A DNA stretch of 64,000 nt from Botryllus schlosseri (Eukaryota). Position 1 is the first letter of the stretch. Each line of letters opens with the position of its first letter. The notes under the pieces are model-generated. The model worked only from the letters and a program-made list of their open reading frames with translations. It ran no database searches and had not been told where the DNA came from. The DNA is taken from the NCBI GenBank assembly GCA_051294905.1, contig CM119372.1, forward strand, positions 1,364,001-1,428,000. The letters run 5' to 3'. Position numbers and translations under genes: made by a program. Positions 1,872 through 27,480 of the stretch are shown one piece after another.

Positions 1872-2794
1872 GCCATCTCTCACACAACCAAAACCTCTCT
1901 CGTATTGGAACCACACCCACATCGTTCTGCGTTCTAATTGGCTAACAGATGTCACGTGATCAAATACTCAACGGTGATTGGGGCGCGTATAAACCCTGTG
2001 TATAATACTACTATCATGATGTTCAATTGTTCACACAAAGCAAAAACAAGATAATGATGTATTATACTGTAAATAGGCGTTACTTCTGCTGCAATTGCAT
2101 GGGTGTGTGTCTTGCACTCTTGACCTCCAGCGAACCAGCGACAAGATAAAGGCTATCTTTTTGGATTGTAATACTATATCAGTGATAGGCTACTTAACCG
2201 GGGTTACCTGAGTCAGGCCCGTATTAAAAAAACCTGACTCAGTGCTCAAACTCATTTTGCGTCAACATTGCGTAAGAATCGGTATTCAGAAAGCGAAGAG
2301 AGAGAACGAGTTTGAGTTCAACTAGAGTCGAACTTGGCGCTCTTTCGAGTTGTGCTTTTGTGGTTATGGTATTCAATGACGATCTGAGGTTGGAGTCGCT
2401 CTCGAAATGCGGCGTTTGAGCAAGCGTTTTCCGAGTCATGCCGTGGGCACTGGCCAGACTCAAGGCCTTACTCATTCTCTCTTTTACGGTTTGGCCGTGA
2501 ATATATTGTGGAAATTGCGCTGTGAGCATGTTTGGTGCCTGAATTCACAATTTCAATTAGAATTAAGATTAGGTTTGCCATACGTCTGGCATTTCACCAT
2601 TGAAACTGCGTCCGGGAGGAATTTCTAAAATATGCGTAAATGTCCGGAATTTTGAAGACTTGAAGTAAGCTCATAATTTTTTCGTAAATCAACCTAAACA
2701 ATTTATTTTTGGGCCAATTTATGCTACATGAAATGTTTCTTCGCGCTGCGCGCGATTTAGGAACACAAATTTTGGTTTTGATAAGTCATCAGTA

Positions 2795-3115
2795 ATCAAT
2801 CAATCGATCAGGTTTATTGATATTTTCATCGTTTCAAAAACATCACAAGAGGGCGATACAATGAAAAGATAGGAAGGTGTCGAAACAACTTGGAGTAGCC
2901 TTTAAGATCAGACAGCCTAGGCGAAGTAAATAAGAGGCATGCACATTGCACATTGCACACTGAATGAAAAGTAACGCAGAGAATATAAGACGCAAGCGAC
3001 AAAATGAGATGGTATGTGGCGGAGGGCGAGGTCGGTGTTAGGTCGTGGTCCGGAAATCCTGAAGACTGGCTAGTAATCCAATAAAAGCAGTTTGTGCTTA
3101 TGCCTGAAGACTTCA
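2795..3115 (-). mobile_element. LINE 3' tail fragment related to the element at 10091
   Basis: Shares GCGATACAATGAAAAGA..GGAAG.TGTCGAA..GCCTAGGCGA and GTCGTGGTCCGG with 10150-10350. Shorter copies lie near 6000-6125, 8320-8470, 42150-42345, 48570-48775, 52530-52750 and 54965-55040. Confidence 0.7.
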
Positions 3116-3955
3116 GGATGATACATCCAGCGTATAATTCAAATCTGTCTTGACGTAATTGAAGGCAATACTATGCAGCCAACATCACATCCAAACCCGC
3201 GGATTGCCAGATCGCGAGCATAATTAACAAAACCGCATGGGCCTACGTCTGCAAGCAGTCATCTAATCTATCGAGTGAAGACTCGAAACCGAGCAACGCT
3301 CGAAATCCCAACAGAATCCCAAACGCTCTCTCGAATCGAGCTGGTCATCATTATGACTGAAGGCAATTAGGCGCGACAAGTAGTCGGATGGTGAATTTTG
3401 TGATGGTGCCTCATCGTTTGTAGTCACATCCGCGGGGGAGACGGGGGTTAGGAACCGCAACCCCGTCCTCCTGGTAGGCTACTAAGCCACTTTCCAAGCA
3501 CAGTCTCCCATTTCAAATTGGTCTCTGAAAAGGAATGGCAATGAGTAGGCCTATTCATTATAACTGTCTTCGCCTTGCGCGAAAATCATAAATTAATGGT
3601 CTTGTTCTTCTAACACTCAAATGATGCACTGATCATTTTGTGCACCTGGATTTCCTACGCAGTTAGATGTGCAAAGTAGTAATATTTGTTGCTATGACCC
3701 CGAAGGCCAGCAGACTAGAATGTAGACCAGGCACGGGCAACATACGGCCCGCGAGGGATTTTGTCCGGCTCGCGGACAGTTTTCCGTCTAACTTGATGTG
3801 GCTCGCGGCCACGGTTTGCCGAGATACCCGACTACCAGCCCAAACGTTAAATTTTAGTGACTATATATTATTATATACGTGTGTGCGTCGCGTGCGAGAG
3901 TGTAGCTTACGCGTAAGTTCGTCGAAGCGAGAAGACTTGCATTATCAGTATTTAC

Positions 3956-4900
3956 TAGGGATGGTGTGAACGTGAGGTTCACGTTCGCGTTCTGTGTGTG
4001 AACCTCGGAACATTTGAGGTTCGCGTTCACAACAGAACCTTGGTAGGTTCTGCACTGTGAACCTTTTTCATATATTGCAATTTTCACTTCATTATAACAT
4101 CTTTGGTTCAAAGTTATTGACTTTCAACGGCGGGCCACTCTATGCATGGAGCTGGCAGCATAAACATTCAACACTAAACGAGCATGCCCTTGACAATCTC
4201 AAAAAATTTACTTGTACTGTTACAAAAGTTTGCTCGAAATATCCAGCTTTCCGTTTGTGCATATTTAGTGTCTCTGTGCTGTGAGCTTAACCCGCAATCG
4301 CATGACATCAAGAGCGAAATACACTGTATTTTGGGAGCGAGTGATCCTTATTCAACCAATCAATGAGATTGATATAGTCTTCTGATGTAAAAATCTAGCT
4401 GGCGTACGGGGTCAATCTTGACTACATATGTATACTGTATCATAAAAACCAAATCCGTGCGACTAGGGTGTTGGCTATACTGCTGTATAACTTGTTAATG
4501 GCGTAATATCGGTAGTAAGTATAGAAACCCATCCATGTGGCAATACTCAGACTCCGAATACATTGTCCGATCAGGTCGAAATTGTTGGCAAAGCGACGCA
4601 AGATACTGATTTTACGGGATTATTATATCATTTGATTGCCTCAGTTGATACATTTGGCGACGTTTAAAACGTCAATATGTACTTAAGTACTGAGCTATTA
4701 TGTGGCCCCGAGTCGTCGCTCGGTATCGTGTATACAGTAGATTAAAATAGGCAATCACCTAATTGAAATATGGGGTTGAAATTAGCAATATGGCGTCACG
4801 TGACGTCATGAGATTCACGTTCGTGTTCACACGAACCTAAACCTTTCAGAGGTTCACGATCACACGAACCTGAACCTTTCAGAGGTTCACACCATCCCTA
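3956..4900. mobile_element. hAT-like MITE nested in an older MITE (about 3728-5225)
   Basis: TIR TAGGGATGGTGTGAAC/GTTCACACCATCCCTA, perfect TSD GTATTTAC (3948-55, 4901-08), subterminal GGTTCAC/GAACC repeats. Confidence 0.85.
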
Positions 4901-14755: not shown

Positions 14756-17700
14756 ATGTCTCTTTACAATTTCAAAAAAATCACGGTCGTTCCAACTTCA
14801 CAAGTAAGCACACATTTTTCTGAAATGGATTTCGATATTTTATGATTCACGATAGTGACTGTACCAGTGCTGTACCTCTCACTTACTTGATGCTTATGGC
14901 TTTCGACCAGATAACTTCTTTGGATGATCAATGTCATAATTTTCTTGAAGACATAAAACGGTGTTTGTGGTATGATATTTCGTGCAATCAATTTTACACT
15001 GTGTCAAAGTCAATAATTTCGATTGAAATGACATATTCAAATGTGAAAGTATATATATACAGTTGTGGAATATATATTGAAATTTTTCTTTCCGAATGTT
15101 TCCAAATGTTTTGAGCTGATGATGTTTTATTAATCAGGACTTTATCGACATAACACTATCGAAGACCCAGCGAAAGACGCCGACTGTCGTCCATAAAAGT
15201 TACGCAATATCGCGGATACGAGGATTTTATCTTCGAAAAGTGCGATTCACCCAACAGAACTATCATGATCGATTAGCGATGATTTTAACGGAGTTTCCCA
15301 AGCTTGAGGTAACTTTCCAAGAATGCCTATAATACAATTTTGTTGAAAAATGTATATTGAGAAGTGATACATTTTGTCCTACGACGCCAACCGTCTCCCC
15401 TGTAAAGCTTTCATAATTACTTGTCACCCAGACTGGAATCGGTGGTTGTTTTCGACAACATGTTGTGCGTGACAGACGGAATTCTCGCGTGATTTAAAAA
15501 TTTCATCCGTGTGACGGAAATATTTTGTGCCCTGATTCTATACTGAATTACGGTATTTATTGAAACGACACAACGTGCTAAAATAGACCTGGTATACGCC
15601 GGACTAGGGTTACGCCGTATATTCGCTGTTGCACAAATGCCACTCTTGCTTGCGTTCACTGTAAAGCGCAAGCAAGCGTCTCATTTTGGATCTGAACTCT
15701 GGTATCGCTTTGTGACGTCAGCATAATTCATTAATTGGCGTGATCTGATATAAATGCTCGCGTGACACTGCGTGTGCCGTTGCCACCGATTCCACTCTGG
15801 CTTGTCACATTTAGCTTATATAATTGCACAACAAATGCGTTGGGCAATTCCACAAAATTTCCACGTAAAATCAGAGATTGTCTTCAAGTCAAGACAATAT
15901 TAACAACATATCGCCGCAGTGGAATCAAAGTAGCTTATATCCAGTTTTCAAATTTTGAAGGTTCATTTGAAAAAAACACTTTTGAAAAAATTTTTCAATT
16001 TCTTTTAGTGATGTCTTGGCCATGGTTATGTCGGTCTCAGTGTTTCAAAGTTAATCGGGGCCAATATATGGCTGAAACAAGATGAAAACTTCACGTTGAG
16101 TTAATTTTCTCAAAATGTGCGAAACAGACATAAGCTACTTTGCTTCCACTGCGTCGATATGTTCAGTTCAAATCGAAGTTCCTTCCGATAAGCATGAGAA
16201 TAGCAAACGTCTGTTCACTAAGTTTGACTCATATTGCGCTTTTGCACCATACAGTTCTTAGCATTTTCAGGAACATTTTCAGGAAAACCATAAATTCGAT
16301 TAGAAGTGAAATGAAAGCATAGGTGCATGTGCATTTAAAAAATTTGGTAGGGGATAGATTTCTAGCATTTTTCTCTAATTAGTTTATTTAAACAACTACA
16401 ATTATCTATTATTCCAAGTCTGCTTTAGAAACCCGACTCCTTTCAATGAAAATAATTTCAATATTTGAAGTGAGCAAACTGTGGCGTGAATTCTGCTGAT
16501 GTGCATAGTTTCAGTCTTGTGATTCTCTCTCTTTATAGGACGTGCATCCGTTCTATGCTGATCTGATGAATGTCCTCTACGACAAGGATCACTACAAGTT
16601 GGCGCTCGGTCAGATAAACACTGCCAAACATCTTATCGACAAGTAAGATCGCTTATTGGTGCAAAGAACTGATGTCTCTCGCTGCATTTGTGAGCACTAC
16701 ATCCATTGTCACAGTGCTGAAAAAATATCGATTTTTCTTTCAAATTTCATCGACTATCCCATGAATTGTCCCATGGTTTAAAAACATTTGGCTCATTTCC
16801 AATTATATTTAACAATTTCATGAGATAGCCAGTGAACTTTGAAATATTTTTTACACTGTCTATACTTTTACAGGTTGCGAGCCAAATTCGGTGTTCACTG
16901 CTTTTTAGACAGCCTAATAATTTTATCATCCACCCGACATTTGAGCATGCAACATTTTGGCATGTGACACTCGGCCATGCGCCTCATAACGCCTGACCCT
17001 AACCCCAAAATTAATTCTTACCCTAACCCTGGAGTTTTCCGACTACTATTCGTGAAAGACCAATCTTGAAACTAGTACTACGCCAACCAAGTGTGTGCCT
17101 ATAGGTATAGTTTGAGCACCATCTGAAAATAGTACACTAAGATTAAGCGCTCCCTTTTGTCTCGATTGTTCGAAATTTCATGCCGGCGACGTCATGCTTT
17201 GTGACATGATTGTTGACATACAACAAATGTTCTTTCCAATTCTTTACTAGCGTCAGTCGAAAATAATCTGGTTCAATACAAAACTACATTGTCGCGTATT
17301 CATAAGGTCTGTCCTTATTTTTTAATGAATTGAATGTTGACCAAGCCACCAAGTTTCATGTCTTGATCCAGGTTAATCAGGCGTTTTGCAATCGTATAAT
17401 TTCTCTCTAGTGTGGGCCGTGACTACGGTCGCTTACTGAAGTACGGAGACTCGCTCTATCGCTGCAAGCAACTGAAAAGGGCCGCGCTGGGACGCATGTG
17501 CACCATAATGAAACGACAGAAGCAGAGCCTGGAGTATTTAGAAGAAGTCCGCCAGCACATGTCGCGATTGCCGAGCATCGACCCCAACACGAGGACGCTA
17601 CTGATTAGCGGCTTTCCTAACGTCGGGAAGTCTAGTTTAATTAATAAGGTGAGGGTGATCTAATTCCAATTGAATTGCTCAAGTAATTTAGCACACGGTG

Positions 17701-20700
17701 ACGTCAAAACGGTATGAGTGATTTGGAAATTTGTTGAAATATGTACCATTTATGCGATCGCAATGAATGCAATTTGCCTGATCCGACCAATCTAGGTTTC
17801 AAGGCTGGCACAGTTTAAAATGGTATTGTAGCGTATTTACATAACATGTCTGCACGATGATGACTTAGTAAAACCGAGATATGATGAGGATCTATTTTTA
17901 CTGGATCGATAGGCCTGAGTGCAGATTCTCACAAAAATACCTCGACTTCATTAAGGCCGGGCAAAATTGAGCGCCTGATTGACTCGCTTCCGAATCGAGT
18001 GCTGTGCGCGAGCATTCGAATGCCGCTTCTTTTAATGTCATACGAGCATGAATAATGTAGGAAACTAGAATATGTACCGTTTATGCGATCGCAATGAAAA
18101 CTCTGCCAGTTCTACATTCCGGGATAAGTTTGTATTTTTTCGACCAATGGCTTCACAGCTTTTCTAAATTAGATTACATTTAGAGTTATAGCTAAACAGG
18201 TTTTAACAAATTATATTGCATTTAAAATTACGGAGTTCCCAAAAACTAGAATTGAATTCAAGTCCGAATTTGAACGGAATTCAACAACATTCGCACTCCA
18301 CAGTTCTCGTGTGGCGTTCTCAGGAGAACCAGGAATCACGGATGAATTGAAATGAGGGCATAGAGGCATTTCACAATTAACATTAAGAATCGGATTACCT
18401 GATCCCGTACATCCCCAGCAGCAATTCCTTTTCCCCTTCTCAGGTCACCAGAGCGGAAGTCGACGTTCAACCGTACGCCTTCACCACCAAGTCGTTATTC
18501 GTCGGCCACATGGATTACAAGTATCTCAGATGGCAAGTCATCGACACTCCCGGCATTCTGGACCATCCCCTGGAAGAACGTAACACCATCGAGATGTTGT
18601 CCATAACCGCGTTGGCTCATCTCCGATCGGCCGTCATCTACGTGATGGACATTTCCGAACAGTGCGGGCAGCCACTGGAAGCTCAGCTACAGTTATTTAA
18701 CAACATAAAGCCGTTGTTTGCTAATAAGGTGAGCTGTCTGTGACTAGGGCTGGCCACGATGATTCGACTGTAGTGGTTAGAGATGGTTTTTCGGGTACTG
18801 AAATTATAGGGGATAGGAGACCAAGTTGAGACACTTTTCTGCTATTTCAACTCCACTCAAAGAGTAATGCCTTCTGAGGAATAATTTTGGTACCAATGGA
18901 ATGCCTGTGTGTACTATTTATGACTATCTCTTGAGTTACATTGAATAACATACTTTGGATTTCTTGGCCCTTGAAAATCCTTGCTCAAATGTCTCAACTT
19001 ACCCCCAGGTGAGGGTAAGATAAGACACAGTGTTCCAGATGAGACACCAAACATGCGGTGCTAACATTGCACTCTACCAGCTCCAGTAATGTAATTTTGT
19101 TTTATAATATGAAGTACTATGGTCGGTATGCCCTTACAAACACAAATTCACATAATTGACACAGACTATGAAAGTATAGTTTTTAGCATTTTTCTACCCA
19201 TCCTCAAATCTGTTTGCCCTGTTAATATGGTAGGACTATAGAATGACAATATGGGAATGACATAAATGAAGGAATCTGTCCATCAGAAAATTGTTCTATG
19301 AAAAAATTGCATGTCTCATCTTGGCCTCCTCTCCACTACACGCCTTGGCAGTAAAAGTTAGTCTATGTTGCAAATTTGGTTTCGCTATGTCCTTCAATTT
19401 GAGACAACATCGTTTTTAGAGTGCAGTGCCCCTTTAACTCTTAGTGCTAAGGAGCGTATAATTTCAGTACTCGAAAAAATCACGTCTCACTACCCGACTC
19501 GAAGCATTGAGCCCAGCCCTAATCGCTACTTCATGACTCGCGATGCACGATGATGATTCATGAAATCCGAACAAAACATGAGGATTCGTTTTCATTTGGA
19601 TCGATAGGCCTGAGTGCATTTGCCACGTCGCGAGATACTGTCGTGTACGCATTGCTGTTGAACCACGCTGGAGCCGAGTTCTCTGTGTCTTTCAGCCACT
19701 TTTTGTGATGGCCAACAAGATCGATATTATTTCGAAAGAAGATTTGAACGCGGAAACGAGTAAAATTTTTCAAGATATTGAAGAGGGCGGCGTGCCCGTT
19801 TTTTGGACTAGTACAGGTAACATTTCATCGGGCTAAAGTTGTACCAATAAAAAATTCTCAGCTTCTTCCAAATTAAGATTATAAGTAGAATTATTATATT
19901 CACCAAAGTTTGAAAATAAATTCAATCCTGAATTAGGAGGAAATATACAACAAAAAGCAAGTTCAATTCACATCAAAACAGAGTTCGTTCTCATAAGCAC
20001 GAGAACGGCAGCTGTCGGTGTGCTCTTGAACTGTAGCTTTTTCTGGAACACAGCGTAGAATATCCACTGAAAGATTCGAATTTATTAATATAATATTTCT
20101 ATATATATATTTAATAGTAAGATAGTACATTTTTAATGCCTAATTCGCTGGAAATCTTTTGTGGCATTACTGTGATTTTGTTTTGATTAATTTCCTAACG
20201 TGACGTGTAATGGATTTTGCTTGGTACAGTTACCGGCGAAGGTATCATGGAGTTGCGGGAGGCGGCTTGCGACAAACTCTTGCTGCAACGCGTTGGCGCG
20301 AAAATGAGAGGAAAGAAAGTCGGTAACGTTCTGAACAGGCTGCGCGTGGCTCAACCGGCACGCAGAGACGACAAGGTGATCATTTTTTTCCAGTATTGAA
20401 TTTTTATGTGGAATCAATGTAGCTTACAGTATGTACTTTTTCAAATTTTGAGATCCACTTTTGAAACCTGAAATTTGCAAAATGGACATTAGCTACTTCT
20501 ATTCTCCCGCAACGATATTTTTTGATACGGCTGTTGGCATACAAAATCTGCGAACCTAGTTTGTGTCGACAGAACGAGTTCTTGTATAATCTAAAAAATA
20601 GTAGGCTACAGTGTCAGCCGAAAATATTTGGCTTTATTTCAAAGTAATATGTATATTATTCCATTGTATACCTTGTGGATGTCTGCACGATGATGAATTT

Positions 20701-23700
20701 GTAAATCTCAGAAATGATGAGGATTATATTTACTGGATCGATAGGCCTGAGTGCAGATTGTCACGATAATATCGAATTCATCAAATTTTGCATCGATCGT
20801 CTTCAGAACCGCTGAACCTTTTTCATTACTCAATGTCGGGGCAGGGGCGGCCAACCTGCGGCCGTAGAAGGAAATTTGTGCGACCGTGGACACGTAATTC
20901 AATCAGTATGTGTTGGCCGCCGTCGACATGCAGTTGGAATTTACGAATTGACTCTCGAATTTCTTGAGAGATTTTGACTGATCTTGAAATTTTCTTCGTG
21001 CTGCGCGCGATTCAATGTGAATTCATTTTTGGATGTTCATATATAGTAGCGGCCTTTCCAATCACCGCCCACAGTACAGATTCGAACAGCAGAGGAAAAT
21101 GAAGCGCCCCATATTAAAATATGAACTAGCAATTGTGTGCTCCTCAGTATACCGACAATCCTGATGGGAGATCAAGAAATAACGACATGCAACAAAGTGA
21201 CTAATAACAATTGGCCCACCCGAAGACGCATCATCATTTATAACTTGCCCTAAATTTTTGAAAACACCCCCCCCCCCGTCCATCAACTTCACAAGTCAAT
21301 CTGGTCACATTGACTAAGAAAGGATAAATGTTTGATAGAAATGTATAAAACACTAATATTTATGACGAAATTCATTAGTGAAACTGAAAATAACTCGCGA
21401 CTTCGGTGCTTATAGTAAGCCTACACCCGTAACAGACACTTTACATGGGTATTTGGTGTCCAGCTAGCTCATTACGACTATGTCCTGAAATGCGGCCGTG
21501 AATGTCAAAAAGGTAGTCCACTTCTGCTCAATCTACCTAATATATATAGAACAATCTTGAGGGTGTGCGTTGCGACCCGTGCCAAGTGACGATGGTTTTA
21601 GCCTAACACTTTTTTCACCCCGGTTTGCTGTATTTTAGGCCCGACCTCCGTGCATTCCGGCCAGCGTCCTGGCCCGGCGTGCCGCCGCAGCCAACGGAGA
21701 GGAATTGGACCCATTGCTTGGCGACGAGCCGGTCGCCATGGACACGGAAGGAGGGGCCAAAACGAAAAAGACGGAGCGAGATTTGGAGATCGCGATGGAG
21801 GAGGAGTATATTCTCAACTTGCAGAGTAAGAGAATGTTGCCTTAGACTAGGACAACTAAAACGCTGCTGTTCGACCTATTTTTGGAGTGGTGCGCCCTAC
21901 AAAGTTGTAGCTCTGACCGATGCACCCCCCTGTCAGGTCATAAATAGGCTGGGCAAAATCGAGGACCTGAGTGATTCGATTCTGAATCACGTAAAATGCT
22001 TTGAGTCAAGTCGAGTATCACTCATTATGATGTCACAACAGAAGGTACTATGTCAAAGTTCAAATATGCACCTTTTATGCCACCACGAAGAACCTAATGC
22101 CTGTTATCCGTCACATTAACGATACTTCGGCCAATCAAGGTTTCATGGCTTCATCAGTGGAAAATATAGTATCAAACCAATAATTCTCATTAGCAAATTA
22201 ACTTTCAGTTGCGAGGAGCGTATAATTTCAGTACTCGAAAAAATCGTATTTTACTACTCGACACGAATCATTGAAATTAATACTCGATTCACGTTCGAGC
22301 ACTCGAATCATTGTGCCCAGCCATAGTCATAAACTGAGTGCGTCAGCTTCAGTTTCATCTGGCTCCCCGATATCAGCCCGTTACAGAGACTGAATTTGGA
22401 TGGGCAAAATGTTTCGCATATGCACCCTTGACCCTTGGGTCTACCACGCACACTGGCTGAGCAGCAATGAATTTTTAATTTTAGTAGCGAAATGCCAGTA
22501 GTCTTCGACAAAATTTTCAGGTCCTCCAATTTTGATTAGAATTAGAGTAACAGTTGCACGTTTTTTCCAAATAAGGTCAATCCAAATGTAGAGTAACAAA
22601 TACAACAAAAGTTAACTTTAAGCTTTTCTGGTTTCATGAACTAATTAGTCAAAAATGTTGAACATTGCGGCTCGACTGTTCTATTGAAATTTTATTCTAT
22701 TTCTTTTGTTGTTACGGAAGTTTTTTGTGGCCCCCATGAAAAAGCCTCAGCCATGCCCCACAGGTTGGGAACCCCTGCGCTGCACAGTTCTGTAGCCTTG
22801 TCAGGATAAGCAAACATTGGATTAAAATTCAAACCAAGAGCATAAAACATTCCGCAAATTTGATTAGAATTAGATTACCCACATTTCGCTTCAACTAGTG
22901 CAATTAGACAGCTAGAATTATCGAATTCGAGTCGAATTTGTCGGGAATTTTATTTTGTATTTTTTTCTGCCGCCTGCAGAATGGTGGGATCTCAAGAATC
23001 CGGAAGAGAAGGAAGACGTGCTGCCAGAGATTTGGGAGGGTCACAATATCGCGGACTTCATCGATCCCGAGATCATGCACAAGTTGAAGGCCTTGGAGAA
23101 GGAAGAAGAGGAGAGAGAAGAAGCCGGACTTTACGATAACGACGAGGTGGGCTACTTTGCTCGCTTTGACGCTATTTCGCTATTCCAAAGAATAACATAG
23201 CGATCAAAATCAAACCATTTTCGGCGGACACATTCAGGGTAATCATTAGCATTGCAGAAAGCGGGTTTGAAACCGGCACGCCCCCTTTATGATAGTGAAA
23301 AATTTCACCCCAGCCTGCCGTGATATCACAAGATACCGAAGGGAGCAATCAGAATGTTTGCAATCCCAACGGATAGTTTGATGGCATTGGGTGTTATGGC
23401 CGTAGACGAGAGAATTCTCAAAAAAAAATGTCAGTTCACTGTGGCTTAGCGCTCCCCCCCCCCCCCTTCAGACGCTTCCACGCCCCCAGTTTGAGAACCA
23501 CCGACTTGAAAAGCCTACATGTTATGCCTCTAAATCTGTAAAAAGATAGAAAACGCCATATGAGTGTCAAAGTACATGAAGTAACTTTGTTACGACGTGA
23601 AATTTTGTCGCAGCTCGTCACGAGACTTAGGTAAATCCAATCCTAATCCCTCAAATTTCCAAAATACGGTTTTCTCAAATCCTGACCCGTGCTCATCTCT

Positions 23701-26700
23701 GTAGCATTGGTAGAGAATTGAAAAGTGCTTTGCATGCCAACAATCTCCGGGATGAAATTTGAATAACGAGGGCGGACAGATGGCTTCAGCTCGATGTACA
23801 ATTTTTAGATTGTACGCGAACTATTTTTGATGCCATACACTAGGTTTGTGTAGTTTGATAGAAGTCGACTCCAAGGCACATAAATAAACGTGTCTCGCTG
23901 AAGCGAAATCCATCGTCTTGTTGGTAAATTTCTGCACAAATAGTATGAATCTTTGAATATTTGTCAATGGCAGAGTTCATAGTCATTGCCTGTTCCGATT
24001 CAGGCTTTGAGGGATGAGTCAAGGGCCGTCTTTTCTCTAGGCATTAGACCTGTGTACTAACGAATCTAGGGACATGCTGTTTGGTCCTGCAAACGTTTTG
24101 TTTTTCTACCTGCGTAACCACATTGTATCCATATTCATTGCCGTGTTGACTATTCTCAATTCGAATACTTTTCTGTATATCTAGTCTTCTGAGGATGAGG
24201 AAACCAAAGAGATTCGACAGCTGGCCGCGAGGATTCGCGAAAAGAAGAAACTGCGAATGATCGAGGGTCACGCAAAGCGAACGGTAACGCTTCCGCACCG
24301 CATATCTTTTATAGATTTTTCTCGTTTTCCGGTTGCATGCAGTTCTGTACTCGGAGGTGGGCAGTCAATAGACTGCTTTACTCTTGAAAGAGTTCTTGAT
24401 TAGCGTTGGCCACCTTGTACTGCTTGCTCGAGTGGATATGTTTGGCTACTCTCACTTCAGCTTGCCAATTTCTTGCGCAAAACTTACGACTTTTAATTCC
24501 AAGTAGATATGGTACGCGGGGCCAGTTGAAAATTGCATTTCTAGTTTTTAGGCAAAACTGCTTGCTTTCTGGATTTTAAAAAGTAGACAGTGGTTTTGGG
24601 GTGTGTCTACCTCACTTTAACAAGTGAAGTCGTTATAGCAACTGTACTTAATACCATTCCCTGTATCATGATGATTTTTTTTTTCGAAACTTTCATTGAT
24701 TTGAAGTGTCACACTTCGTCAAGCCGCTTTCTTTAGGGTGATTTGTCATCCTTTTTCAAGATATCACAATTATCCTCCTAGGATATCCAAGTGACCTTCT
24801 TTGTGGCTATTTGTCCTCGTAGCTTCGACAGCCACGCGGCTGCACAGTAGGGCGGTTCAAAAATAACCTTTTTTCCTGAATCTTGCTGGTTACTTGATTA
24901 AATCGTTAGGTTGCCTCAAAAAACGACGCACACCAAATTTGAATTCATTCCAACCAATATTCGCGGATTTCGTAGAGTTTGAAAATTTTTAATTTGCCTG
25001 AAAATGCAAAAAAAAAATTTTTTCCAATTTTCCCTCGATCCATATGAAATTGTTGCGCTGTCTTCAAAAACGATGGAAAACAAATTTGACTCAATTCCAA
25101 GCTGCAGAAGCGGAGTTATTCAAGTTTTTTGATGATAATTCTGGGATGATCCCTCAATCAAGGATAATCCCAGAATTATCAAAGAAAAACTGAAATAACT
25201 CCACTTCTACGGCTTCGAATTGAGTCAAATTTGTTTTGCATCGTTTTTGAAGACAGCGCAACAATTTCATGGGGTTGGCATAAAAATTTGAAAAATTTTT
25301 TTTTTTGCATTTTTAGGCAAATTAAAAATTTTCAAACTCTACGAAATCCGCGAATATTGGTTGGAATGAATTCAAATTTGGTGTGCGTCGTTTTTTGAGG
25401 CAACCTAACGATTTAATCAAGTAACCAGCAAGATTCAGGAAAAAAGGTTATTTTTGAACCGCCCTACTGCACAGGCACAACTGAAAAACGCCATAAATGA
25501 CGCGATATCACTATTTGGACGGCGAGGATCACTAAAAATTTATGTTGGACCTGGTCTTCCGGGAGTCGAGTTTAAGGAAATGACCTTTCTTGCTCAACGC
25601 GACATTGTTTCCGGTCAAAATTTTCAAATCACCCGATTTCATGAGTTTTGTGATTTGTAGAAAGTGCCCACTTTTCCAGATCGCAAAATAGGGTAAACCT
25701 AACTTTCCGCGACTAATCTTGACCACCTCTGTCTGTATTTCTTCAGCATGATTTCTCGTTTATTTATATGTTTTACGATTTGTCCACGAGTAGCATGCGC
25801 TGTGACGAGAACTTGCAACTGATATCGGGTTTGTGATGAGCATGTGGATCGATAGCTGAGATTGTGGATCGATAGCTGAGATTGTTATCAGATATACGCA
25901 TCATGAACCGGAGTTAAGACAACTAGAACATTTTTTGGCTTTACCAAATGAGATTGGCAATATGATGACAGCTACATTTTTTCAAACTAAGTTATGATTA
26001 GAATTACCGAATTCGTCAATGGTAATGGTATTGAATTTAAAATTGGAAGAAATACGACGAAAATCATGTTCACTTCATATCAAATCAGGTTTCGTTCTCA
26101 TCAGCACGAAAATGACAAATGTCTGTACGTCGACTGTCGAGCTTGGTTTGTTCCGTACGATACAGTCCTTACCAGAAATTAGATTACCAAAATTTCCTAG
26201 TTGTCCATGTCTGTCCTGAACTTGCTTTGCTTTGCTCTTACATTTGTTGTTTGCAGAGTTGCCTTAAACACTTGAATTTTACTTGCTTGCACGGTTCTAA
26301 TGCCGCTTCTTCGGTGTGATTTATCGACAGTTGTTGTTGAATGGTAGAAGAAAACATTCCAGCGTTTGTCGTTGCAGGTTGAAAAGCCGCAAGTTACCAG
26401 AAAAGTGACTTCGACGAATAAGACAGCTGGAGAAATCGAAAAGAAAATGGGAGAGCTGGGTGTTGATTTGAGAGGGCGACAGGTATTGTCGCCGTTCATT
26501 CTTCGTGTATCTGCTGACGTGTCGACTTCAATCAGTAGCACTGGTAGTGATACTCGCAGCGATATTTGGTGACGAGATATTCGTACAATATTGTTTCCCT
26601 ATCTTTACTACTTTGGTGTTGAGCTTCTTGGAGGTGCATGACTTTATTATCGAATTTAATAATACGTTCATAAATCCGAATATTTTCAGCGGTCATCGTC

Positions 26701-27480
26701 AGCAACTAATATGGAATTAGAAAAAACATTGTATATCTACAATCGTATCACAAAATATGACTTTGAATGGTGTTTTCAAGCTTCTACTTTATTTTTACGT
26801 ATGCGAGTTTTTGTAAATTCAATTTTGCGTTAGTTTGCATCGATTCTGTGCGGTGAATTATAGCAATAGCCCAGTATGTTACAGATAGGGCTGGGCACAA
26901 TAGTTCGAGTACTCGAATTCAAACAGAGTATTACTTGCTACGATTCGAGTGGAGTGGGCGAATATAATTTCTTTGTATCATGTGATTATACGCTTATTTC
27001 TCGCAGGGTCATTTCCGATCTCGAAGTAAAACGCGCGGACTGAAGAGAAAGAGAGACCCGTCTGCCATGGACACTTCCACCACGCGGTCACAGTCCAGGA
27101 GCAAGTCTAGGACGCGAGACGACAGCGGCATAAGAGACCCGAAGGTTTGTGTGTCAACTTGTGGAGAAATACTGCCGTTTATCGTACGTGCAGTCGGTGT
27201 CGGAAACTTGGTGCTACTTTTTCGGAAGTGCGCGAATCGGTTTTTCGTGCTTGCGCTACGGCCTACTGCTTCTTCGCGCTCCAGTACCTGCGATGACTGT
27301 TTTGACCTTATGCATTTCTAACCTCAGATGATGGCCAAGGCGAAGAAGCTCGCGAAGACAGCTCAGCGCAAGATGATCAGGCAGGGCAAAGCGGGAGAGT
27401 CCGATCGTCACATCCACGAGAAGAAACCTCGGCATCTTTATTCGGGCAAGAGGGGAGTCGGGAAGACGGACCGTCGCTAA
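14756..27480 (+). CDS. GTPBP4: Nucleolar GTP-binding protein 1 (NOG1), 60S biogenesis GTPase
   Basis: Exons 14756-14803, 15138-15308, 16539-16642, 17411-17648, 18444-18728, 19696-19816, 20230-20375, 21639-21825, 22980-23146, 24185-24283, 26378-26482, 27007-27144 and 27328-27480. Start is [14 protein letters not shown]. Motifs: G1 [45 protein letters not shown]-terminus is [18 protein letters not shown]. All junctions are GT-AG and in frame; AATAAA at 27503. Confidence 0.97.
17849..17925 (+). ncRNA. Intronic box C/D snoRNA, copy 1 (GTPBP4 intron 4), putative 28S rRNA 2'-O-methylation guide
   Basis: Terminal stem TCTGCAC/GTGCAGA, C box ATGATGA 17857-63, D' CCGA, C' ATGAGGA, guide TGGATCGATAGGC, D box CTGA 17915-18. 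Confidence 0.88.
18806..19340. mobile_element. MITE with GAGACA-type TIRs (unclassified)
   Basis: Left end AGGAGACCAAGTTGAGACA, right end TGTCTCATCTTGGCCTCCT, internal palindrome TGTCTCAACTTACCCC..GGGTAAGATAAGACA. Confidence 0.6.
19543..19619 (+). ncRNA. Intronic box C/D snoRNA, copy 2 (GTPBP4 intron 5)
   Basis: Stem ATGCAC/GTGCAT, C box ATGATGA 19550-56, D' CCGA, C' ATGAGGA, identical guide, D box CTGA 19610-13. It ends 76 nt before the 3' splice site. Confidence 0.88.
20682..20757 (+). ncRNA. Intronic box C/D snoRNA, copy 3 (GTPBP4 intron 7)
   Basis: Stem TCTGCAC/GTGCAGA, C box ATGATGA 20690-96, D' CAGA, C' ATGAGGA, identical guide, D box CTGA 20747-50. Confidence 0.88.
21945..22325. mobile_element. 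hAT-like MITE (GGCTGGGC family)
   Basis: TSD GTCATAAA; internally deleted relative of 63018-63532. Confidence 0.8.
24848..25466. mobile_element. Young, almost fully palindromic fold-back MITE in GTPBP4 intron 10
   Basis: About 300-bp arms, near-identical over the outer ~150 bp; TIR TAGGGCGGTTCAAAAATAACC; perfect TSD CTGCACAG. Older or partial relatives at about 34418-34830, 35448-35745, 46466-46938 and 58680-59319. Confidence 0.9.
25797..25882 (+). ncRNA. Divergent intronic box C/D snoRNA candidate (GTPBP4 intron 10) with a duplicated guide+D box
   Basis: C-like GTGACGA 25802-08, D' CTGA 25819-22, C' GTGATGA 25833-39, guide TGGATCGATAG followed by D box CTGA 25856-59. The 20-nt unit TGTGGATCGATAGCTGAGAT occurs twice (25843-62, 25863-82). 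No clear terminal stem. Confidence 0.6.

Follow-up and report, generated by a model that had tools for sequence, protein, structure and literature searches.

Three introns of the GTPBP4/NOG1 gene of Botryllus schlosseri each contain a short element that resembles a small nucleolar RNA (snoRNA) of the box C/D type, and this raises the question of which RNA these elements would guide and whether their place in this gene has a meaning of its own. The gene lies in a stretch of 64,000 nucleotides, hereafter the window (all positions are those of the window), which corresponds to G000:C2:1364001-1428000 of the 495.5-Mb genome that was searched. The copies possess the anatomy and position of intronic box C/D snoRNAs, are three in number in the genome, have a unique 12-bp complement in 28S rRNA, and share their guide and box D with elements of distant eukaryotes. 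In our analysis, they very probably belong to an old C/D guide family for adenosine 3080 of 28S rRNA (A3080), with GTPBP4 merely as the current host; processing, ribonucleoprotein assembly and the methyl group are predicted from the class.

Anatomy of the three snoRNA copies

In agreement with a preliminary description of the window, one element each was located in introns 4, 5 and 7, all on the sense strand, as listed below.

17849-17925, + strand: snoRNA copy 1 (intron 4); stem 17849-17855/17919-17925, box C 17857-17863
Within copy 1, + strand: D' 17874-17877, C' about 17881-17890, guide 17903-17914, box D 17915-17918
19543-19619, + strand: snoRNA copy 2 (intron 5); stem 19543-19548/19614-19619, box C 19550-19556
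Within copy 2, + strand: D' 19567-19570, C' 19578-19584, guide 19598-19609, box D 19610-19613
20682-20757, + strand: snoRNA copy 3 (intron 7); stem 20682-20688/20751-20757, box C 20690-20696
Within copy 3, + strand: D' about 20707-20712, C' about 20714-20723, guide 20735-20746, box D 20747-20750

In all three copies, box C (ATGATGA) and box D (CTGA) are joined by a terminal stem of 6-7 bp, and C' is canonical or near-canonical, so that the assignment to the box C/D class stood. Of the four boxes that had been described as conserved, D' is degenerate (CCGA, CCGA and CTCA/CAGA in copies 1, 2 and 3, respectively). Conservation had also been described as limited to the boxes and the guide; this was overstated for copies 1 and 3, which are identical in 69/77 columns; copy 2 shares 59/79 and 57/79 columns with the others. 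The identity of the flanks drops to background within 10-20 nt of the boxes. When the whole window was scanned for C...D pairs with a stem of at least 5 bp, the + strand gave these three copies only, and the minus strand gave one unrelated stretch. The 13-mer guide has three exact matches in the window; with up to two mismatches it has six, as compared with 0.79 expected, and none of 100 shuffles reached six.

The target in 28S rRNA and the predicted methylation site

Four identical large-subunit (LSU) rRNA copies were retrieved from the same genome as the target, and 28S numbering follows the Rfam hit. The guide pairs perfectly over 12 bp with 28S 3076-3087, up to box D; the copies thus have an antisense element of 12 bp directly 5' of box D, within the 10-21 nt of the class. 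The preliminary description had placed the complement in yeast 25S and invertebrate 28S rRNA and had put its length at 13 nt. The target was indeed found in the rDNA of B. schlosseri itself, but the duplex is of 12 bp, not 13, since a U stands opposite the initial T of the 13-nt guide, which is left unpaired; 13 bp are reached only if the C of box D is counted. The target is present once in 18S and 28S rRNA, the next-best duplex over 18S, 28S, 5.8S/internal transcribed spacer, U2 and U6 is of 8 bp, and a complement of at least 11 nt stands at only 3 of the 560 CTGA sites in the window, namely those of the three copies. On the D' side, no complement longer than 7 bp was found in the same set of RNAs, U1, U4, U5 and tRNAs lying outside the comparison.

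Under the D+5 rule as given in PMC11542601 (this and the other papers cited by PMC number were available in part, and statements on them refer to those parts), the fifth base before box D marks the site; it pairs with 28S A3080, in line with the adenosine that had been predicted. An offset of 322 fits 25 of the 26 yeast anchors of 2'-O-methylation (Nm) taken from Table S4 of PMC11014333, and 28S A3080 hence corresponds to yeast 25S A2758. Rfam's LSU model for eukaryotes gives the target as upper-case consensus and places the site in an unpaired linker, 5' of the helix that follows. We take this helix to be helix 88 (H88), and C2764, six bases from yeast A2758, presumably lines the cycloheximide/E-site pocket.

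Judging from the class, three paralogous C/D snoRNAs would be released from the spliced GTPBP4 introns and would assemble with Snu13/15.5K, Nop56, Nop58 and fibrillarin. In pre-28S rRNA, the linker immediately 5' of helix 88 is single-stranded; the 12-nt element beside box D would then pair with it and would direct the 2'-O-methylation of A3080 (yeast A2758) by fibrillarin. The D' side appears to have no target, and each copy would be a single-guide snoRNA.

The host gene

The host gene and its exons are as follows.

14756-27480, + strand: GTPBP4/NOG1 host gene, 13 coding exons
Exons 1-5, + strand: 14756-14803, 15138-15308, 16539-16642, 17411-17648, 18444-18728
Exons 6-9, + strand: 19696-19816, 20230-20375, 21639-21825, 22980-23146
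Exons 10-13, + strand: 24185-24283, 26378-26482, 27007-27144, 27328-27480

The frame comprises 653 codons without an internal stop, and every intron is GT-AG. The protein is identical to that of Styela clava at 550 of 653 positions (Clavelina, 487; Ciona, 458), and exon 5 by itself shows 99% identity to S. clava and matches human NOG1 in PDB (E 3e-50). These identities point to an ascidian close to Styela. At least 11 of the 12 splice junctions were found among the joints listed from RNA reads and contigs. These observations support the earlier naming of GTPBP4 as the host, and the copies are thus located, in sense orientation, in introns 4, 5 and 7 of a transcribed and spliced gene. The RNA evidence consists of four runs, which are mRNA-type or of unknown type and are uninformative on mature snoRNA.

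The same guide in other eukaryotes

Metagenomes were scanned with the pattern of TGATGA, 30-60 nt, the guide and box D, with 596 Gb of prokaryote genomes as a control. The scan gave 59 metagenome loci versus three prokaryote loci, a ratio that is only indicative because the size of the metagenome collection in bases is not given. The 59 loci form 21 sequence clusters, and box C and a terminal stem of at least 5 bp are present in 37 of the 59 loci, versus 4.4% of random positions. An alignment was made with 24 of 29 metagenome rows (L016, L037, L045 and L059 were dropped as near-relatives and L074 as a control match), in which the stem was 90.7% paired with double changes at six of six pairs; shuffles equalled this in 0/500 cases on four of five measures and in 15/500 on the fifth. 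Since the 24 rows were chosen for having a stem, the covariation gives weak support.

Exon peptides of RPL35 flank the element in 19 of the 59 loci. These loci are annelid-like, because their nearest named RPL35 is that of a polychaete (76%). Several of the RPL35-hosted members pair with 28S rRNA over 13-14 bp, past the searched motif; the members are interrelated, and so the extended pairings count as one observation. Three loci (L014, L018 and L062) have three copies each of the snoRNA in RPL35 introns, all in one intron in the case of L018, and this triplication is independent of the GTPBP4 trio. In other loci, the guide adjoins known snoRNA genes, namely SNORD24 in L017, L031 and L037, accompanied by snR60-clan genes in L017, and SNORD36 in L013, all above the Rfam cut-off, and weaker snoRNA neighbours were seen in L026 and L070. 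L017:413-2475 contains five C/D snoRNA-like genes in a row (a SNORD79-like gene, this guide family, SNORD24 and two of the snR60 clan) between very short exons, with no Pfam match in the 11 frames tested; we assume that this cluster resembles a GAS5-type non-coding host. In L013, whose member is short-stemmed, the closest named relatives of the neighbouring gene are stramenopiles, at no more than about 43%, and this is weak evidence of lineage. No lineage was obtained for L015 by the Atlas search or for L034 from its TIM exon.

When compared with B. schlosseri rRNA, the homologues showed no convincing D' guide. Separately, inspection by eye of a GC-rich member at L015:3001-3071 showed a D' side complementary to the Rfam LSU consensus around yeast 2934-2935, and this suggests a double guide.

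Outside the metagenomes, the nearest counterpart is Ot-CDsno96 of Ostreococcus tauri (PMC7671301). Like the copies, it is a short C/D snoRNA (67 nt). It was abundantly sequenced, the three values in Table S6 spanning 2182-4828 transcripts per million, and its box D is preceded, at a distance of one base, by GATCGATAGG, with 10 nt of shared guide and the same D+5 A. The motif is complementary over 10 bp to the same 28S site, a 25S reading that was made in the present analysis. Ot-CDsno96 differs from the copies in its intergenic, clustered position and in possessing, on the D' side, a second guide of the SNORD8/9 kind that is directed at U6 (PMC7671301). The match of its D' side to U6 was found here as well; the best duplex of the window copies with their own U6 is of 5 bp, which sets them apart from SNORD8/SNORD9-like guides.

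The preliminary description had proposed a lineage-specific family. This was not borne out, as the same guide and box D occur in annelid-like, other animal-like and protist-like contigs as well as in Ot-CDsno96. A related reading accepts the guide but holds that the family is a tunicate invention tied to NOG1, the matches in other eukaryotes being convergent or due to chance; it concerns history, not function. Any guide to the yeast-2758 site must share its sequence, so guide identity cannot prove descent, and one family by descent and several convergent guides cannot be separated by it. Besides, the window copies align weakly to the other members outside the boxes, and the protist members score as low as 20-40 bits with the family model. 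Against this stand the excess of metagenome matches over the prokaryote control, the boxes, stems and intronic or cluster positions of the members, and the separate triplication in three loci. Furthermore, tblastn gave no NOG1 match in any of the 59 loci, and the targeted site would not be lineage-specific even if the guides were convergent. We therefore regard a tunicate origin as unlikely.

The absence of NOG1 from these loci, in which the other hosts are RPL35 or snoRNA clusters, also argues against the idea that a 60S-assembly GTPase co-produces guides for the substrate on which it acts. The action of Nog1 is a late one and concerns H89 of the pre-60S particle (PMC6968927), and hosts change between lineages; hence, no special account is needed for the NOG1 link. 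The favoured explanation is that the family would be old and would move between housekeeping hosts, with GTPBP4 as its host in B. schlosseri.

Catalogues and known guides

The comparison with Rfam that had been suggested was carried out, and the copies match no family. Rfam 15 gave no match in the window at the gathering cut-off, and none at E up to 5 makes a family; the best weak match on a copy was SNORD99 (24.1 bits, E 0.56, cut-off 60). The guide-bearing elements of the metagenome loci had no Rfam match either (20 loci at the cut-off and 11 loci at E up to 3).

Two sets of known guides are close enough to be compared. Drosophila snoRNA:Me28S-C3227a/b (CD54a/b) are, like the copies, intronic C/D guides that have been duplicated and that target this part of LSU domain V, but they guide 28S-Cm3298, which is yeast C2765, 7 nt downstream, and their host is the non-coding Uhg5 (PMC11014333). 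The copies fall outside this family, as their target is yeast A2758 and not C2765. Intronic box C/D methylation guides in general, such as snR48/SNORD60 and snR38/SNORD1, share with the copies the C/D'/C'/D layout, the stem, the presence of one per intron, the paralogues and a ribosome-related host, while their guides and targets differ; the sites of snR48/SNORD60 and snR38/SNORD1, yeast G2791/2793 and G2815, are the nearest conserved ones.

In titles and abstracts, nothing was found on the guide, the target or a site label such as Am2758, or on GTPBP4 as a snoRNA host. Positions 2757-2760 do not appear in the available main text of a fungal snoRNAome (PMC5824354), and the yeast-2758 equivalent is not mentioned in the available parts of the reports on planarian (PMC11649923), Leishmania (PMC13487219), Arabidopsis (PMC8351944), nucleomorph (PMC6461891), Euglena (PMC7672448) and Chaetomium (PMC12723226). 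The family and the site are thus apparently uncatalogued; the site lists of Euglena, Chlamydomonas, Chaetomium and fungi were covered in part and could include the site.

Evidence weighing against the assignment

Several observations weigh against an Am guide family, among them those from the methylation maps. The available part of the table in PMC11014333 lists no Nm between yeast 2735 and 2765 in fly, human, mouse, yeast, Arabidopsis, Xenopus or Dictyostelium, and the available parts of Table 1 of PMC8817022 and of Table 2 of PMC11542601, the latter adding tomato and tobacco, agree in giving no Nm at the yeast-2758 equivalent. The site is thus without a listed Nm in seven mapped species and in these two plants; the maps cover no species known to carry the guide. 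In the case of Ostreococcus, the authors assigned Ot-CDsno96 to U6.A51 and 18S.A770 with no 25S target, and the available part of Table S4 assigns no Ot-snoRNA to the expected 25S A2590 (PMC7671301).

The homologues and the copies themselves add further points of this kind. Part of the locus list is due to chance, given that 22 of the 59 metagenome loci lack a stem and one of the three prokaryote control matches passes the stem test; the stemless set includes probable chance matches such as L019, which lies beside a molybdopterin-binding domain. Among the matches listed for the cDNA runs, which are mRNA-type or of unknown type, no molecule starts or ends at the ends of an element. Mammalian intronic C/D snoRNAs prefer a distance of roughly 70-80 nt from the 3' splice site, and those distant from the splice site rely on external stems. 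Box D of copy 2 is 83 nt from the 3' splice site, and those of copies 1 and 3 are far from it (526 and 889 nt, respectively). Copies 1 and 3 would consequently depend on their terminal stems, which are longer than that of copy 2, as this rule would have it.

The unmethylated state of the yeast-2758 equivalent in all of the maps compared, to the extent that these were available, would also fit genuine C/D snoRNAs whose role is to chaperone pre-rRNA at the helix-88 linker, with methylation slight or absent. All three copies retain the motif that follows C' and the 5' T that stays unpaired, and this would fit such a role, too. However, the guide borders directly on box D, in precisely the register that methylation guides have, this register is kept in Ostreococcus despite a different first base, and the RNA is short and without extra domains. 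These facts make a chaperone quite improbable, and a methylation guide for A3080 is preferred.

Copy number in the genome

With copy 1 as the query, BLAST gave exactly these three copies in the genome, a count to be read as a lower bound, and a 17-mer pattern that tolerated one mismatch gave exactly the same three places. The hundreds of dispersed copies in either orientation that would speak for a mobile element were not seen in 495 Mb. Although read pile-ups indicate many dispersed repeats in these introns, the proposal that the copies are short repeats or pieces of transposons whose rRNA complement arose by chance has a negligible probability, since there are only three, all in sense orientation and one per intron, their similarity stops at the stem, and the boxes and the 12-bp guide stand in register; a transposon or repeat identity was ruled out by copy number and orientation.

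A fourth element in intron 10 and other features of the window

The count of three given in the preliminary description was incomplete, as a related element in intron 10 had been overlooked.

25802-25879, + strand: degenerate fourth element (intron 10); C-like GTGACGA 25802-25808, D'-like CTGA 25819-25822, C' GTGATGA 25833-25839
Within the fourth element, + strand: guide 25845-25855, box D 25856-25859, followed up to 25879 by guide and box D again as a 20-nt tandem repeat

Its guide lacks the last two bases of the family guide and is perfectly antisense to the same 28S site over 10 bp, and its D+5 position would be 28S C3082, i.e., yeast C2760. It is the only such four-box pattern in the window and the only such guide and box D motif in the genome. 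The element has no terminal stem, and its 20-nt tandem repeat is missing in a contig of run X1. It was not counted as a functional copy because the family model R1 does not score it and because no significant similarity to the copies was seen in its 5' half, the 5' part being no more copy-like than random windows (161, 2040 and 541 of 3000). The fourth element is most likely a decaying paralogue; it may also be a working guide retargeted to C3082.

Elsewhere in intron 10, a long inverted repeat at 25020-25300 with many repeat reads gave weak miRNA-family scores far under the cut-off, and is probably a miniature inverted-repeat transposable element. At 25962-26000, ATGATGA is followed by an 11-nt perfect complement to 18S rRNA (D+5 at A769) before CTAA, in an AT-rich context in which no box D follows; we take this complement to resemble an snR53-type guide. 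In intron 9, a stretch at 23583-23600 is complementary over 14 nt, with one G-U pair, to the 18S rRNA 3' end, presumably the region bound by U13; this is probably due to chance because there are no boxes nearby and no Rfam match. In the whole genome (G000), 48 U6 matches, 45 of them over the Rfam cut-off, are spread across many contigs and form a large set of U6 genes or U6 pseudogenes.

Implications

Since the mechanism is textbook knowledge, the anatomy of the copies will not surprise specialists. The mechanism would be conventional, while the family is apparently uncatalogued and, judging from the sequences compared, broadly distributed. What is added is a candidate rRNA methylation site and a guide family without an entry in Rfam or in the maps of model organisms.

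A wider proposal, to which we give slightly less than an even chance, is that an ancient guide for Am at yeast A2758 persists in tunicates, annelids, other animals, protists and green algae, is absent from the yeast, fly, vertebrate, land-plant and Dictyostelium maps, and hops between GTPBP4, RPL35 and non-coding clusters, one ascidian paralogue having slipped by two bases to C2760. The relic in intron 10 may then be a small case of guide slippage in progress. The candidate family seems to span several eukaryote groups and would be old and overlooked rather than special to B. schlosseri; as such, it would bear on attempts to reconstruct the ancestral snoRNA set and on the question of how rRNA modification is shaped by repeated loss.

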